Source: Nitrosopumilus sp. (GTDB lineage: Archaea; Thermoproteota; Nitrososphaeria; Nitrososphaerales; Nitrosopumilaceae). From it: a stretch of 64,000 nucleotides of DNA. Below, in pieces: positions 1 to 53,952 of the stretch. The notes below the pieces were generated by a model. It ran no database searches and had not been told where the DNA came from. It saw only the letters and a list, made by a program, of their open reading frames with translations. Every line of letters begins with the position of its first letter. Positions within the stretch are counted from its first letter, which is position 1. Position numbers and translations under genes: made by a program. The stretch covers positions 40,572-104,571 of the forward strand of contig CBDCWS010000001.1 of assembly GCA_965223425.1 (NCBI GenBank), read 5' to 3'.

Positions 1-784
1 ATCCGATAGTGGCGTCTTTCCACTTTCTGTTTCTGCTTATACCAGTTGTTAGAGAGAAACACTTTCTTACTAAGCCTGCGTTGCTCACGTTTGAGTTTTC
101 GCTCATTCGGACGGGCGAGAGTTGCTTCGCGAAGCCGAATCAACGGAAACCGCAGGATTGGCTTTGCAATCCTGCTCTCGCCCGTCCGCAACGTTTCAAA
201 GGTCTTGGGTTCGGATACTGCTTACCGTTATCAAGTGTGGCGAGTGAGTTGATACCTACGTCTATACCGACAACAGGGAGTCCACGTGTATCACGAGGAA
301 CATTTGGTGTTCCTGTGTCTACCGTTATAGATACAAACCACCTATGTGCCGTTCTTGATATGGTAATCTTTACAATCTCACCTTTAAACCGTAACTTCTG
401 AAACATACGCACCCGCCCAATCTTTGGGAGGCGGATACGTTTACCTTTTATTGTGACCGAGTTCGGGTCAGTGCTATAAGATTGACGGTCTCTGCGTTTC
501 TTTTTCTTTGGAAACCTGCTTTGTCCGCTTCGCCACCGTGATATAGCGTCCCCAAGGTGCTTTATGCCAAATAAGGCTGCGCGCTGATCCATGTCTTTTG
601 CCCATTCTATACCGCGTTTGGCAATGTTAAAACGCTTATTGAGTTCTTTCCAGTGACGAGGCTCGTTTTTAAAATCAGATAGTCCATAGTTATACGCAAA
701 CCGAGAATAACCGCATTGCTGCGAAAACCATGAACGCTGCTCGTCAGTTGTGTCTAATGCTATCTTATGTGATTTGATCGCCAT
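1..784 (-). pseudogene. tnpB: TnpB (IS200/IS605/IS607 OrfB) RNA-guided nuclease, interrupted by an 83-bp insertion; runs off the left edge
   Basis: N-terminal HTH (QQCGYSRFAYN), LPKIG and RuvC-I VGIDVG motifs. Removing 107-189 restores the frame RPLKR-Y-ERKLKREQRRLSKK...HYRI, which parallels the TnpB at 6222-7316. Confidence 0.9.
107..189. repeat. Cruciform MITE/REP-like insertion inside tnpB
   Basis: 14-bp perfect terminal inverted repeat CGGACGGGCGAGAG (108-121 / 175-188); internal hairpins GCTTCGCGAAGC and GCAGGATTG..CAATCCTGC. Confidence 0.85.
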
Positions 785-6073: not shown

Positions 6074-6240
6074 CCGTTGTGTAGGACTTAAACAAACCTT
6101 ACATTTCTGTTTGATTGTTGCCATGCTTCCTGTTTCAACGTCCACTGCCTCCAAACGAGGTCTTATATGAACTCCACAGGCGTTTTACTTCTCCTCGCAA
6201 CTCGTGGCGAAGTGTTAAAGGTTAAGTGGGACACAGATTG
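6074..6240 (-). ncRNA. Putative TnpB omega/reRNA scaffold at the element right end
   Basis: Directly follows the tnpB stop: ...AAACGCCTGTGGAG...TAAGACC...GTTGAAACAGGAAGC...GTAAGGTTTGTTTAAGTCCTACACAACGG, a pattern typical of TnpB right ends. Confidence 0.6.
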
Positions 6241-7316
6241 ATAGCCGCGTTGTGATCTCGATCGCATTCAAAACCGCATTCAGAACAGTGATAGGTGCGA
6301 TCCGAGAGCGTGAGGTCATCTTTCTTGTGTCCACAACTGCTACACGTTTTGCTACTCGCAAAGAACATATCGGCTTGTGTTATCGGTATACCGCGACGCT
6401 CTGCCTTGTATTTCAACATCGTTAGAAAGCGAGAAAAAGCCGAGTCGGATAAAGCCTTTGCCAACCTACGATTTTTCAAAAGTCCGCTGATATTCAGTGT
6501 TTCTATACCGATAGCAGCGGCACTTTTGACGATAGCCGTTGACGCTTTATGGTGTGCGTCCTCACGTATACAGGCAATGCGATAGTGGACTGCACCGAGT
6601 CGTTTCTTTGCTTTCTGCCAATTCTGTGAGCCTTTGCACTTACGTGATAAATCCTTGTTAGCACGTCTCAATTTGCGTTGATACCGCTTCAGAGGGCGTG
6701 GATTATCGTATACAACGCCATCAGAACACGTAGCGAGGGTGTTGATACCTACGTCAACGCCTATCGGCTCTCTATCGTCAAACAGGAGCGTTTGGTGTGT
6801 GTAATTGCTTTCGTTACACCGAACCAGTATAGAAACGAACCAGCGATCGTTACGCTTGGATACCACAACCTTAGAGACATCACCTTTAAACCGCAGTTCC
6901 TCACGCATCCGCACCCAGCCGATCTTGGGCAGATTGATACGCTTTTTGTAAACTTCAACCGTTCCTACGCCATTGTCGGCTTGATAGGAGATTCTATCAG
7001 ATCGTTTCTTATAGACGGGGAATCGGTTCTGTTTACTTTTCCAACGTTTCACGGCATCACCAAAGTTGTGGATAGCATTCTTGGACGCGTTCTGTGAGAG
7101 ATCGTTACACCATGCAAACTTATCAGGTTTGACGGCGTTAAACTCACGCTTGATGCCGTAAAGACTCCGCCATTCGTCAGCATCTAAGCCTGTCTTGAAA
7201 GACGACAAAGCAAAGTTGAAAGCAACGCGGGTATAGCCACAATGCTGCGCCATCAACGTGGATTGCTTGTTATTCGGGTTAAGTTCGATTTTCTGAGTTC
7301 GTAAAGGCAGCGTCAT
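6222..7316 (-). CDS. tnpB: TnpB RNA-guided endonuclease, apparently intact
   Basis: HTH, RuvC-I GVDVG, RuvC-II IETL, Zn ribbon CSSCG..CSECG, RuvC-III DRDHNAAIN. Confidence 0.95.
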   Translation of the reverse strand: MTLPLRTQKIELNPNNKQSTLMAQHCGYTRVAFNFALSSFKTGLDADEWRSLYGIKREFNAVKPDKFAWCNDLSQNASKNAIHNFGDAVKRWKSKQNRFPVYKKRSDRISYQADNGVGTVEVYKKRINLPKIGWVRMREELRFKGDVSKVVVSKRNDRWFVSILVRCNESNYTHQTLLFDDREPIGVDVGINTLATCSDGVVYDNPRPLKRYQRKLRRANKDLSRKCKGSQNWQKAKKRLGAVHYRIACIREDAHHKASTAIVKSAAAIGIETLNISGLLKNRRLAKALSDSAFSRFLTMLKYKAERRGIPITQADMFFASSKTCSSCGHKKDDLTLSDRTYHCSECGFECDRDHNAAINLCPT

Positions 7317-11253: not shown

Positions 11254-11568
11254 ATGAATGAGAAGAAAAAAGTTTTTATCTCGTGCGTAGAGGAAGACCG
11301 ACCGTTTATTGAAGGATTGCATCGTGATTTAGAAAACTATGGATTTGAGACTTTCTGGTATGCAGAAGATTCGCCTGCCGGAGTAAGTTTTAAAAATCAT
11401 ACCGAAAAGGAAATAAACAGCTGTGATCATTTTTTAGCGTGTTTTTCGGAAACCTCAACAAAAAAAGAACAGAGCGATATGAGAAGGGAACTGACTCTGG
11501 CATGTGAAAAACATAAAACACTGCCACTGGACACCAACTGGTTAATATGTTTAACGTGGGTTCCATAA
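11254..11568 (+). pseudogene. TIR-domain protein truncated by IS982
   Basis: KVFISC..DRPFIEGLHRDL..GFETFW..D..AG..IN.CDHFLACFS..RREL; the ORF ends inside the IS982 left IR. Confidence 0.8.
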
Positions 11569-12562
11569 AAAATAGGAGTTTTTTAGAGAGAACTCCTTTG
11601 GTATAATAAGGTAAGCAAACCTATACCAAAAGGAGTTCTCCATGCCTATTGTATCACTTTTTTGCGAAATAGACGACTTTTTTCTGGCGTTTGAAAAATA
11701 TCAGGCACGCCAGCAACTCCCCGCAACCGCGTGTGAAAAACGGGGTCGGCCCCGGAGGATGCATCCCAGCGAGGTGATGACGATCCTCGTAGACTTTCAT
11801 CAAAGTCGGTATCGGACTTTCAAAGACTATTACCTGAAACAAGTTTGCCTAGGTTTGCGGTGGGCGTTTCCAAACCTTGTCAGCTACAACCGCTTTGTTG
11901 CGCTGATGCCAGAGACACTTTTGCCGTTGTCTGTTTATCTTTACACCCGGTTCGGCACCTGCGATGGAGTTTCTTTCATGGATTCAACCCGACTCCGGGT
12001 CTGCGAGAATCGGCGTATCCCAACGCATCGCGTCTTTCTCGAACACGCTGAACGTGGCAAAACCTCGCTCGGATGGTTCTATGGGTTCAAACTTCATCTA
12101 CTCATCAATACCCATGGGGATATCCTTGGGGCTGAGTTGACCCCCGGAAATATAGATGACCGGGTGCCGGTTGAAAAGTTGACGCAATCCGTGTTTGGCA
12201 AACTTTACGCCGATAAGGGATATATCTCCAAAGAGTTGCGACAGACGTTGAATAGCCAAGGGGTTGACTTGATTTACAAGGTTCGCAAGAACATGAAACC
12301 TCAACCGTTGTCCACCTATGATGAGGCGATGCTCAAGAAGCGTATGCTCATTGAGACGGTCATTGGACAACTCAAAAGTCAGACGCAACTTGAACATACC
12401 CGTCATCGGAGTTTCCAAAACTTTCAAGTCAATAGCGTCTCAGCGTTGATTGCTTATACGTATTTGGAAAAGAAACCGACACTGAAGTTGCGAGTGATTG
12501 ACGAAATCAAGCATGAGTTGCCGGGGACCGAAAAACCCTAAAACCTTTTATGGAACTCACGT
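11554..12562 (+). mobile_element. IS982-family element
   Basis: IRs ACGTGGGTTCCATAAAA / TTTTATGGAACTCACGT. Confidence 0.9.
11642..12541 (+). CDS. IS982 transposase
   Basis: DST..C.NRRI..HRVF..GK...GWFYGFKLHL, YADKGY, KRMLIETV. Confidence 0.95.
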   Translation: MPIVSLFCEIDDFFLAFEKYQARQQLPATACEKRGRPRRMHPSEVMTILVDFHQSRYRTFKDYYLKQVCLGLRWAFPNLVSYNRFVALMPETLLPLSVYLYTRFGTCDGVSFMDSTRLRVCENRRIPTHRVFLEHAERGKTSLGWFYGFKLHLLINTHGDILGAELTPGNIDDRVPVEKLTQSVFGKLYADKGYISKELRQTLNSQGVDLIYKVRKNMKPQPLSTYDEAMLKKRMLIETVIGQLKSQTQLEHTRHRSFQNFQVNSVSALIAYTYLEKKPTLKLRVIDEIKHELPGTEKP

Positions 12563-19217: not shown

Positions 19218-19535
19218 GAGTTTCCCCAACGCTTGGCAGATTGTGGGATCAACAAGGGTTGCTTGCGATCACAACTCTGACACCCTCTCCTCCAGAGGAC
19301 AACGCCCTGCCCTCTCGCCCGAAGGCGACTTCGTATATCTGAGAGTGCTTGTTTCGGGATGCACCTTTAAGTGTCTTTCCCATTACACTCAAGTTTTCCT
19401 CCAGTATCTATCTGGTGTCAAAGACTTCTACCGCTTGTGTCGCAACTTTACGTGAGTCCACTCGGTATGTAGCATCAGAACGCATGCTCACAACCCCACA
19501 CGCGAGCGCGTGATCGAGTTACTATGTGTATTCTA

Positions 19536-20631
19536 ACGTGAGTTCGGAATAAAGATCTAGTTAACGGTAACCGGTAAGTCCTTGATTTCATCAAGTGCTC
19601 GCAGATTCAGTGATGGTTTTTTCTCCTGCCAAGTATAAGCAATCAACGCACATACTGTGTTGACTTGAAAGTTGACGAAACTCCGGTGGCGGGTATGTTC
19701 AAGTTGACTCTGGTTCTTTAGTTGATTAATAACCGACTCAACGAGCATCCGCTTTTTCAGCATGACTGCGTCGAAATCCGACAAGGGTTTGGGTTTCATA
19801 TGCTTACGAACCTTGTAGACTCAGAACAGACCTTGGGTTTCTAACGCCTCAGCGAGTTTCTGGGAAATATATCCCTTATCGCCATAAAGTTTTCCAAAGA
19901 GGCGTTGGGTCAACTTTGCGACGGGTCTGCGATCGTCTATGTTTGCGGGTGTTAACGCAACCCATAGAAGTTCGCCACGTTCGTTGATAACCAGATGGAG
20001 TTTGAACCCATAGAACCATCCCAGAGAGTTTTTTGAAAGTGCTGCCTCCTCAGCTCGGAAGTTGGAGAGGTTGCGAGGCTTCGGCTCGCAACCGATATAT
20101 CGGCGGTTGGCTGAAACCCAACCGCCTCTTCAACTTCCGCAGAAGACGCGATGCGCCGGGATGCGTCGGTTCTTACAGACTGCCACCGGTGTTGAGTCAA
20201 TGAATGAAAGACCGCTGCACTCTCGAAATCGCGTCTGAAGATAGACAGACAAGGGCAGCAATGCTTCTGACATGAGTTCAACGAAGCGGTTGTAGCTAAC
20301 CAGGTATGGAAATGCCCATCGCAGCTGAACCGCAACATGCTTTTGGTAATAGTGCTTGAAACTTCGATACCGACTTTGATGAAAGTCTACGAGTATCGTC
20401 ATCACCTCGCTAGTATGTAGGCGTCGGGTGCGTCGGCGTTTTTTCGCTGGATCCGAAACCGGTAGCGATCGTGGCATCATTTGTTTTTCAAACGCAAGAA
20501 AAAAGTCGTCAATCTCACAGAAAAGTGATATAATCGGCATGGAGAATTCCTTTGGGTAATGGGTTTAGCTTACCTCATTATACCAGAGGAGTTCTCTTTA
20601 TACGACACCCTATTTTTTATCGAACTCACGT
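19536..20631 (-). mobile_element. IS982-family element, inactivated by a cruciform insert and a TGA nonsense codon
   Basis: IRs ACGTGAGTTCG..AAA; ORF pieces 20130-20540 and 19557-19799 are homologous to 11642-12541. Confidence 0.9.
20055..20141. repeat. Cruciform MITE/REP-like insertion inside the IS982 transposase
   Basis: Terminal IR CGGAAGTTGGAGAGG / CCTCTTCAACTTCCG plus two inner hairpins; removal restores HRVF-AEEAALSKN-SLGW. Confidence 0.85.
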
Positions 20632-20728
20632 TAGTTTAACGCCTATAGATTTGAGTATACGGCTGATTACAGAGGAATCACACCTATATTTTTCTGCTAT
20701 CCTAACTGTTGACTAAAGTTTGGACAAT

Positions 20729-35027: not shown

Positions 35028-35645
35028 ATGAGAAATCCTCTAACGATACACACTGAAATCAAGCATTTCGATGAACAGGAATTTGTCACACGTGCTCAAA
35101 ATGGTGATGCCGAGGCGTTTAATCCACTTGTAAACAAATATCAGCACAAAATCTATAACTTGATTTACCAACAGCTTCGCGACCGAGAAACAGCAGAAGA
35201 TCTCAGTCAAGAAGTTTTTCTGAAGGCGTGGCGAGCGCTGCCGGACCTCAAAGACCAGTCTATATTCTATACTTGGATTTACAAAATCGCTGTTAATTGT
35301 TGTATTGATTACATCCGGAAACGAAAAAGGCAATTTGTTTATGCGTGCGAGGAATTGCCAGAAAATCCAGACGATGTTCTGCCGATGCTCCAGACACAGC
35401 CATCGCCTTGTGAAATCCTTGAGAAAGAGGAACTCGGAGAGATTATCCGCAGAGCGGTGCATAAACTACCATCTGGACAGCGCAGTGCGTTCCGTTTGCG
35501 GTACTTTCAAGAAATCCCAATAAAAGAGATTGCCGTGCGTATGAACAGGACGGAAGGCACGATTAAAACGCACCTGCACCACGCACGTCGAAATCTCCGA
35601 AATATGTTGCTTCCTTATCTCCAAGATGAACCGATTGCATGGTAA
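35028..35645 (+). CDS. ECF sigma-70 factor
   Basis: AEDLSQEVFLKAW, FYTWIYKIAVN, IKEIAVRMNRTEGTIKTHLHHAR. Confidence 0.9.
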   Translation: MRNPLTIHTEIKHFDEQEFVTRAQNGDAEAFNPLVNKYQHKIYNLIYQQLRDRETAEDLSQEVFLKAWRALPDLKDQSIFYTWIYKIAVNCCIDYIRKRKRQFVYACEELPENPDDVLPMLQTQPSPCEILEKEELGEIIRRAVHKLPSGQRSAFRLRYFQEIPIKEIAVRMNRTEGTIKTHLHHARRNLRNMLLPYLQDEPIAW

Positions 35646-35708
35646 TGATTTGCTATCACTTCAGACAATGCTGTTGGAGTCTATCACTTGATTAAGTGTG
35701 CATCCTGC

Positions 35709-36480
35709 TTATCGCTTTCCATCTTTGAATCGTGCGATTGCGCCACGTTCAGCGAGTTCTGCTTTTGCGTAGTGTGCGGGCCTCTGTGAGGATTTCCAGC
35801 GTCCTGCGACTTGCATATCAACGACGGTTGCGCCGGCTTGTGCGAGTGAGATGGCTGATCCGACGCGTAGGGAATGCCCGGAGATAAAACCTTCCACGCC
35901 AGTATGTGCGCGTTTCTGAATAATACGCCGTGCGGAGACAGTTGTGAGGCGTTCCGACTGGACGTGCCCACCGCGACGGATATGACGGAACACCGCACCG
36001 CGCGTGATCTCTGCACGTTCGCGATACTGCTTTAGGAGCTCACGGGTATTCTCACAGACATACAGCGTTTCGCCCGCACCCTCTTGATCGGTTTTTGACG
36101 ATCGGAGCGTAAGCGTACTGCCTTTGAAGTCACCGACGTTCACAGCCACTACCTCAGAGATCCGCAACAGACAATCGCTCATCAGCCGGATCATCACCGA
36201 ATCCCGCAGTCCGATAAGCGTGCCTTCCGTTTCCGCATAGATACAGACCCTTTCCACATCCTGCCATATCAACCCGTCTACCTGTCCGCGTCCTCTGTCC
36301 TTACCCTCTCTGCGGATACCCGCCAGTGTCGCCTGCGTGATAGGGAAGTTGAGGGTTTCCTGTGATTGGTGTTTGAGTTGCCACTTCACTGCGGCGACGA
36401 GCTGTCCGATCGTTGCCGGGGATTTGCCGTTATCGTGCAGGCTGGTGATGTATTTGAAAGCAAATAGCGTTGTATAAACG
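35709..36480 (-). pseudogene. Cre-like tyrosine recombinase, N-terminus replaced by AT-rich DNA, catalytic domain intact
   Basis: LLRISE, SKTDQ, GHSLRVG, GRW, HYA; the ORF-track N-terminus lies in unrelated AT-rich sequence. Confidence 0.8.
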
Positions 36481-36951
36481 CTTTTATATAACGCTAAAAA
36501 CACAGATTTAGATACGAGTTTTTGTGGTTTTTGAAAATAACAGGGAAGGCAGAGACCTAATTCTGTTTGCCCGTTTTTTCGGTGTATTTTATATGTAGGG
36601 ACAATAGATAATTTCGGAATTGACATTTAATTTGAAGATAAAGAAGGGGACAAATCTCAAAAAGGTAGGAATCATGAATGGATAGAAATCAACGAGGGTT
36701 TTCATAAGTTAATCAAAGATGAATTTACTGAAATATATGAGAGTATGCCGAATGAAAAGGAATATGATAAATAGTCAAGATTGTAACTTATTGATATTAT
36801 CGATGCATTCAAGAAACGCTTGTGAATCGCCATCAAAGCCTCCGACTCCTATTCGGCTTGTTTTAACAGCAGACGGCTTTACTGCTCAGAAAACGTTCAT
36901 TTTGAAATAGTAGACACACACGAAGTTTATAGATGCTGTCGGGGGAATGTT

Positions 36952-53847: not shown

Positions 53848-53952
53848 TGATTTTCAAGGAGGCATCGCTGCGTAAGAAAGTGGCGAGGCTGCGGAAGTTG
53901 GCAAGTGCTGTTTTCAAAAGCAAAACAGAACGTAACCTTTTGCGAGCCGTGC

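Follow-up and report, generated by a model that had tools for sequence, protein, structure and literature searches.

Two folded mini-elements inserted in transposon genes of a sponge-associated contig: a sparse, low-copy variant of palindromic repeats

The host contig and its two interrupted genes

The window, the 64-kb stretch of DNA analysed here, is part of a 123,106-bp contig labelled circular (ena:ERZ25067264:ctg830969_9x_c), and its DNA was recovered in sponge metagenomes. Candidatus Poribacteria is the NCBI name on close homologues of the TnpB proteins of the window. The contig carries ParA, Cre-like recombinases and many insertion sequences, being crowded with IS982, IS630-like, IS3 and DDE_5 elements and holding several TnpB genes (at least four). 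A tyrosine recombinase gene lies at 35709-36626 of the window and others lie elsewhere on the contig; past the window end, two IS630-like (DDE_3) copies stand head to head within 2.7 kb (L043, 4585-7297). In word depth the 123-kb contig exceeds some other contigs of the same run about threefold (about 1000 versus about 330), a ratio compatible with a multicopy, plasmid-like element of Poribacteria. We treat the contig as plasmid-like DNA of a sponge-symbiotic bacterium of that phylum. The contigs concerned belong to the long-read assemblies ENA ERZ25067264, ERZ25072670, ERZ25766727 and ERZ26167216, which include a Poribacteria contig of 5.3 Mb.

Two transposon genes of the window, both on the minus strand, carry an insert. 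The first, tnpB_1 (1-784), is a TnpB/OrfB_IS605 gene split by the 83-nt el1 (107-189, with 108-190 equally possible; the sense, minus strand reads GCGGACGGG...CCCGTCCGA) into an N-terminal part at 190-784 and a C-terminal part that runs from 106 leftward off the window start and on into locus L018. Its intact paralogue tnpB_2 (6222-7316, minus strand) provides the length reference for the el1 site (PLKRYQRKL). The second is the transposase gene of an IS982-family element (19529-20639, minus strand; ends ACGTGAGTTCG...CGAACTCACGT), which holds the 87-nt el2 (20055-20141; sense, minus strand TGCGGAAGTTGAAGAGG...CCTCTCCAACTTCCGA), delimited by exact empty sites and by its fold. An earlier note on this DNA had proposed inserts of 83 bp in tnpB and 87 bp in IS982, and both were found where it had placed them. 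A second, intact IS982-family copy (299 aa, 11546-12541), only about 75% identical to the el2-bearing one, lacks an insert at the homologous position.

Empty sites and insertion boundaries

Querying with the read-through IS982 protein returned an intact homologue of 298 aa, P0001, at 95% identity, together with related copies. Along four empty copies of IS982 (L011-L014) the DNA is colinear with the window, and exactly the 87 nt of el2 are missing. Read along the sense strand, the empty site is ...CGCGTCTTC with GCTGAGGAGG... directly after it (the joint flank begins GCTGAGG), and the insert between these two parts reads TGCGGAAG...CTTCCGA. Contigs from four DNA runs of two other host organisms (X5/X3 and X15/X18) likewise join 20054 to 20142, with 0 letters shared at the joint. 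Collecting empty alleles, as the earlier note had proposed, thus defines the ends of el2 exactly, and el2 is proven to be an exact insertion with neither a target duplication (not even 1 base) nor a deletion. An origin of el2 by inverted duplication of the target was considered and rejected, as neither arm is present in the empty sites or resembles the flanks.

The data contained no identical empty allele of el1, whose site was judged by paralogue length and reading frame. The paralogue tnpB_2 and the tnpB genes of 96% identity (L015-L017) agree in length, and none has an insert at the el1 site. Deleting 83 nt restores a 366-aa TnpB frame (LKR-Y/N-ERKLKR) and deleting 84 nt does not. The claim that removal restores each frame is therefore borne out for el1 by the open 366-aa tnpB and for el2 by the IS982 copies without its 87 nt; the claim that there is no clear target-site duplication holds to the base for el2, and for el1 at the level of paralogue length and frame. 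As tnpB_1 is otherwise intact, the el1 insertion is recent, and it disables the gene.

Fold and architecture of the two elements

The 5′ arm of the el1 outer stem (CGGACGGGCGAGAG, 108-121) pairs perfectly over 14 bp with 175-188 (CTCTCGCCCGTCCG). Inner hairpin 1 lies at 121-144 (GTTGCTTCGCGAAGCCGAATCAAC) and inner hairpin 2 at 152-175 (GCAGGATTGGCTTTGCAATCCTGC), the latter about 50% identical to the reverse complement of the former. In el2 the 5′ arm (CGGAAGTTGGAGAGG, 20056-20070) pairs with 20125-20139, hairpin 1 occupies 20069-20093 (GGTTGCGAGGCTTCGGCTCGCAACC, loop GCTTCGG) and hairpin 2 occupies 20102-20126 (GGCGGTTGGCTGAAACCCAACCGCC), whose reverse complement is identical to hairpin 1 at 13/25 positions. 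The outer stem of 14-15 bp with inner hairpins described earlier is thus present in both elements, each with two inner hairpins of 9-10 bp.

Folded as single-stranded DNA, el1 and el2 reach −29.8 and −32.4 kcal/mol (z = −5.3 and −7.5; 0 of 200 shuffles as stable), and with RNA parameters (both about −51 kcal/mol) they are the top two folders among the stem-flanked segments of the window. The termini by themselves are not significant (5 matches to TCGGA-N70-90-TCCGC against 3.0 expected); what stands out is the termini combined with stems.

On the plus strand el1 reads TCGGACGGGCGAGAG...CTCTCGCCCGTCCGC and el2 reads TCGGAAGTTGGAGAGG...CCTCTTCAACTTCCGCA; on the sense strand of the host genes both elements run (T)GCGGA...TCCGA. 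An unpaired G.A pair closes the core CGGA...TCCG; read on the opposite strand, this pair is T.C. The sense-strand ends of el2 are TG+core+A and those of el1 are one base shorter, so that the 1-nt boundary disagreement of the earlier note is real: el2 is T+core+CA, and el1 either T+core+C or core+CA. Only el1 carries CGTC, 3 nt inside its end.

Taken whole, el1 and el2 each form an imperfect palindrome with arms 71-79% complementary, and direct sequence comparison gives about 50% identity between each inner hairpin and the reverse complement of its partner. The inner loops are near-identical in el2 (GTTTCAG in hairpin 2, GCTTCGG in hairpin 1) and nearly alike in el1 (GCAAAGCC and GCGAAGCC); one el2 inner loop, read on the plus strand, is a cUUCGg tetraloop. 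Since the hairpins are inverted homologues with matching loops, the element is an inverted doublet of one unit composed of motif, tail and stem-loop. This arrangement also explains the proposed common motif TTCGGCT(T)CGC, which does occur in both elements but on opposite strands, because the inner hairpins are inverted homologues. Both el1 and el2 accordingly consist of one hairpin unit doubled in inverse orientation; the long tails are complementary, and the whole can fold as a Y or as a single long hairpin. They have in common 11 of the 15 arm positions (TCGGA.G...GAGAG), the TTGC...CAAC frame of hairpin 1 and the TTGGCT of hairpin 2; MAFFT could not align el1 to el2.

Relatives and copy number

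Among Logan contigs aligned on el2, at least five relatives were found in sponge metagenomes, with unrelated flanks and with differing, fully compensated outer stems. One is 92% identical to el2. The others have an el2-like interior within outer stems CGGAAAGTTGACAG/CTGTCAACTTTCCG, CGGAATCGCGAGAGG/CCTCTCGCAATTC.. and CGGAAAGTGGCGA/TCGCCATTTTCC. Their ends are TG-core-A or T-core-C(A), that is, (T)GCGGA...TCCGA or T-CGGA...TCCG-CA, and both end polarities relative to the interior were read from 30-nt contig overhangs, even among near-identical copies. Two events could produce this switch: the interior could flip between perfect arms, or either strand could be mobilised. Different copies have G.T and C.A mismatches, and both strands are affected. 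Size, architecture, CGGA...TCCG ends, GAGAG-TTGC positions and homologous hairpins are common to el1, el2 and the at least five further copies. The proposal of a structure-defined family is upheld: the termini are conserved, the stems are variable and compensated, the elements are non-coding, and target-site duplication is lacking.

On its 5′ side the TGCGGA strand is flanked by GTCTTC in el2, by AACGT(T) in el1 and, in contig overhangs, by ACTGC, GCCTT, GCGTC and TTTTA; these flanks are pyrimidine-rich, with no motif or tetranucleotide in common. As the copies have diverged, their target guides could differ. A GAAGAC flank apparently common to el2 and one relative may hold two mismatches and is given no weight.

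In contigs from X15 and X18, the el2 relative of 92% identity is followed downstream, after about 20 nt, by the start of a second element (TGCGGAAAGTT...), so family members are sometimes adjacent. The word TGCGGAAGTTGG at 53890-53901 of the window, in an intergenic position, equals the first 12 nt of the TGCGGA strand of el2 (about 0.01 expected). It precedes an unrelated hairpin (CTGTTTT...AAAACAG), a matching 3′ arm was not found nearby, and the word could be a solo half-unit or chance. A long-range inverted repeat with CGGA/TCCG ends at 35551-36229 was judged to be chance, its TG...A context being missing.

The family is real but sparse and low-copy. Two copies, both intragenic, were found in the scanned part of the 123-kb contig (about 98 kb), and metagenomes yielded 0 to 5 el2-like contigs each; the runs of four other host organisms (F, G, H and I) gave no copy, and four metagenomes gave no el1 relative at 80% identity or above. 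Structural scans found no copy in about 200 kb of other Poribacteria loci and none new in about 300 kb of related DNA altogether, and the modules (outer stem, hairpin 1, hairpin 2) were not found standing alone in about 300 kb. A generic family pattern run over GTDB genomes gave 8 matches, all in unrelated taxa (one folded, its stem unpaired), and an el2-subfamily pattern run over JGI metagenomes gave 20, none with a paired outer stem, in scans that did not return the window's own copies, which suggests that neither collection includes the source genome. A looser pattern gave 2 chance matches in IMG/VR, blastn of el2 against plasmids gave no match, and a six-frame el2 peptide query returned the IS982::el2 cluster only.

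Passage of el2 with IS982

Three homologous proteins (P0023, P0244 and P0242) carry el2 as 29 in-frame residues (CGSWRGGWVSANRRYIGCEPKPRNLSNFR), and P0243 carries a 90-nt variant of the insert. In its original state el2 was thus in frame and stop-free, adding 29 aa. IS982 with el2 is present at three loci with different flanks (L019/L041, L040/L042 and the window), so el2 did not simply kill IS982. The suggestion of the earlier note that the inserts disable other mobile genes consequently holds for tnpB, where el1 is out of frame and brings a frameshift plus a stop, but needs correction for IS982, where the insert was originally in frame and stop-free and is found at three loci. Between filled IS982 copies the IS body diverges by 2.7-4% and the insert by 1-4 changes, and these copies cluster together, weakly. 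On the simplest reading, a single el2 insertion would have been followed by spread of IS982::el2, autonomously or in trans.

In the window copy of el2, a G-to-A change on the sense strand creates a TGA stop and leaves one G.T pair in the outer stem; the outer stem is perfect in L019, L041 and L042, and the change is a later one. In el1 as in el2, stop codons are missing from 5 of the 6 frames (P about 0.02-0.07 for each, compared with shuffles). Stop avoidance of this kind would be expected of elements that survive inside genes.

The IS982 transposase gene holds a further in-frame TGA after ...ETQGLF (window 19821-19823, minus strand), common to L013, L014, L019, L041 and L042, which splits the transposase into ORFs of 210/239 aa and 80 aa; P0001 and P0247 have a sense codon there. 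Being common to copies at different loci, this TGA is either inherited by trans-mobilised copies or read through.

Search for a mover and candidate mechanisms

Within 4-kb ranges we found no longer element with el-type ends. The ends of IS982 and of other insertion sequences are unrelated to TGCGGA, and the ends of the window tnpB elements are unlike the el1 and el2 hairpins. A crude motif scan and Pfam searches of 20 of the 59 ORFs revealed no Y1/HUH gene in the window or in the fetched loci.

Our best guess, which is not a result, is a single-strand, structure-guided Y1 (HUH) mechanism, and we hold it tentatively. The two elements represent a small and diverged family of non-coding mobile DNA, about 83-90 bp in length. 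Its unit has (T)GCGGA as a conserved motif at the 5′ side, with a tail of 9-10 nt and a stem-loop of 25 nt, the paired tails making up the 14-15-bp outer stem. Under the proposed mechanism the element may move as folded single-stranded DNA, cut at ^TGCGGA and TCCGA^ by a tyrosine transposase (HUH/Y1) that reads structure, is of RAYT or IS200/IS605 type and would be encoded at another place in the genome. As the element is near-palindromic, either strand could be used, and such use would explain both end polarities relative to the interior and the 1-nt difference between ends. The earlier guess of an HUH/RAYT enzyme seems reasonable by analogy, since the doublet architecture resembles that of REP dimers and REPINs. 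Against it count the lack of a GTAG or CGTC tag, the very low copy number and the want of a common target tetranucleotide; perfect stems could moreover arise by arm-to-arm copying and not by selection.

A bolder form of the proposal, which we regard as unlikely, is that these elements form a new tag class of hairpin-doublet mobile DNA, with ends set by the fold and not by sequence (an outer helix closed by unpaired G.A / T.C), with mobilisation from either strand that would give the flip/flop polarity and the 1-nt wobble of the ends, and kept clear of stops so as to live in genes and travel on insertion sequences. If this were true and the enzyme were neither RAYT nor an IS200-type Y1, it would amount to a new bacterial transposition chemistry.

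Second to the Y1 mechanism, and possible though doubtful, we rank an unknown non-HUH machinery that writes small hairpin cassettes without target duplication, el1 and el2 being larger relatives or composites of such cassettes. Insertion of this kind has reportedly been proposed for the SDR elements of Nostoc, possibly via an RNA intermediate. Exact insertion without target duplication, the compensated stems and the lack of a transposase partner in the motif scan and in Pfam searches of 20 ORFs would all suit it, as would the plus-strand cUUCGg loop of el2 and the sense orientation of both inserts relative to their host genes. However, an orientation shared by two of two inserts is not significant, the G.T and C.A mismatches fall on both strands in different copies, no reverse transcriptase was found among the ORFs tested, and no module occurs on its own in about 300 kb.

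We consider it improbable that el1 and el2 are folded recombination sites inserted by a tyrosine recombinase, comparable to integron attC hairpins or a folded phage attP. The elements are defined by structure, variable in sequence and of attC-like size; the asymmetric unpaired G.A / T.C at the stem end could set the choice of strand, and several tyrosine recombinase genes (Cre-like or integrase) are present on the same contig. Yet the attC R′′/R′ consensus (RYYYAAC/GTTRRRY) is absent: GTTGCGA and TCGCAAC occur inside hairpin 1, not at the ends, and violate it. Element ends and targets lack a common core, there is no cargo, and the insertions sit inside unrelated genes.

Somewhat less probable again is an ordinary double-stranded MITE moved by a DDE transposase that reads terminal inverted repeats. 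The elements are small, with terminal inverted repeats of 14-15 bp, and the contig is full of DDE insertion sequences (IS982, IS630-like, IS3 and DDE_5), but the lack of any duplication at all, even of 1 bp, argues against a DDE transposase. A DDE-type MITE has a target-site duplication and the inverted repeats of a parent insertion sequence; here neither was found. The arms differ in sequence between copies while staying complementary, a longer element with the same ends is missing from the 4-kb ranges, and the insertion sequence ends are unrelated to TGCGGA.

We give very little credence to the idea that the two are not mobile at all and are local palindromes made by template switching or repair and alike by chance. 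Perfect stems, the missing target duplication and the very low copy number are what one would see in that case, but the same ends, architecture and homologous hairpins recur in el1, in el2 and, at unrelated loci, in at least five copies more, and neither arm of el2 resembles its flanks.

Transcript data bear on one further reading. Empty IS982 copies occur in sponge metatranscriptome contigs (window 19980-20220; X6-X9), which indicates that transcription of the IS982 family takes place in the sponge. The el2 insert is not spanned by any contig of four sponge metatranscriptomes, and the insert-less RNA contigs carry C20186G, the variant that the empty alleles have at the DNA level, which makes them transcripts of copies without the insert and not spliced products. 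Rfam gave nothing at gathering scores, and at relaxed thresholds the best hits (E of 0.03 or above) were noise from unrelated families. The least credible reading, that the inserts are excised from the transcript as intron-like or ribozyme RNA, so that the host genes stay functional, could appeal to the sense orientation of both inserts, the two restored frames, the strong structure and the apparent persistence and spread of insert-bearing IS982, but it is contradicted by these RNA and Rfam results, by a length of 83-87 nt that is far below that of known self-splicing introns, and by the existence of empty and filled forms alike as DNA.

Comparison with known palindromic elements

The closest likeness is to REP dimers and REPINs associated with RAYT (TnpA_REP, Y1), which like el1 and el2 consist of two inverted units with a short spacer (Bertels & Rainey 2011, PMC3116915; Nunvar 2010, PMC2817692; Di Nocera 2013, PMC3733652). 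The REPIN arrangement of two inverted palindromic units and a short spacer is what we find in both elements. REP dimers fold separately or as one large stem-loop, and they occur in ORFs, encoding 20-30 aa (PMC3733652). They are non-coding, and their stems and loops vary between copies ('heterodimers'), as in the el family; some of those inside ORFs add 20-30 amino acids, and el2 adds 29. REP elements are linked to RAYT transposases of the IS200/IS605 type (PMC3733652; PMC3116915; PMC3337134; PMC6006769). The el termini are, in contrast, (T)GCGGA/TCCGA and not GTAG or CGTC, and their tails of 9-10 nt form an outer stem of 14-15 bp. The el copies number a handful instead of tens to hundreds, and those of the window are intragenic, whereas REPs are mostly extragenic. 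A REPIN family also has a cognate single-copy RAYT gene with the repeats on its flanks; for the el family, the motif scan and the 20 ORFs run through Pfam yielded no HUH/Y1-like ORF.

Like el1 and el2, Rickettsia palindromic elements (RPEs; PMC10969869) are palindromic inserts within coding genes; RPEs often keep the frame and are tolerated there, and el2 too was in frame. They have no known transposase, and none was found for the el family in the DNA scanned. RPEs are about 100-150 bp, belong to Rickettsia and are partly CGTC-tagged (PMC3733652), whereas the el elements measure 83-90 bp and el1 is out of frame.

Another comparison is with the IS200/IS605 family, of which the contig carries several TnpB genes, and with its non-autonomous derivatives (PATEs). 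The ends of IS200/IS605 elements are defined by hairpins, not by inverted repeats bound as duplex DNA, and the el ends are likewise hairpin-defined. The end hairpins of IS200/IS605 have the same orientation on one strand, and the two ends are not mutually complementary; the el ends, unlike those of IS200/IS605-derived PATEs, are complementary, and their hairpins are inverted homologues. IS200/IS605 elements insert 3′ of a fixed tetra- or pentanucleotide, and no such fixed target was seen at the el flanks. IS200/IS605 elements transpose by single-strand 'peel and paste' (PMC6006769). Neither they nor the PATEs produce a target duplication, as with el2.

The SDR elements of Nostoc punctiforme differ in scale. 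Elhai et al. are said to have described them in 2008 in Genome Res as single hairpins of 21-27 nt at high copy number, and they are reportedly structured inserts without target duplication, with compensatory changes, lying inside other mobile elements and with an unknown mover. The el elements, by comparison, are doublets of 83-90 nt at low copy number. The T-shaped terminal hairpins of parvoviruses have an outer stem and two small internal hairpins, a 'flip/flop' interior and processing by an HUH nuclease. The likeness is one of architecture only, parvoviral hairpins being termini of linear single-stranded DNA genomes and the el elements interspersed inserts.

We conclude that el1 and el2 are a precisely bounded, uncatalogued, low-copy variant of known palindromic mini-elements (REP dimers/REPINs and RPEs). 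On present evidence the family is a variation on elements of the REP-dimer and RPE type rather than a new principle. It provides a base-exact, structured mini-element that inserts without target duplication, with matched empty and filled sites. If the enzyme is identified, an 87-nt substrate with known junctions would offer a compact system for structure-guided DNA insertion. The mobile DNA of Poribacteria is hardly described, and the el family adds an example there. The entry of el2 into a transposase gene in frame, followed by its apparent ride on the insertion sequence, would represent a simple route of persistence for palindromes of very low copy number.
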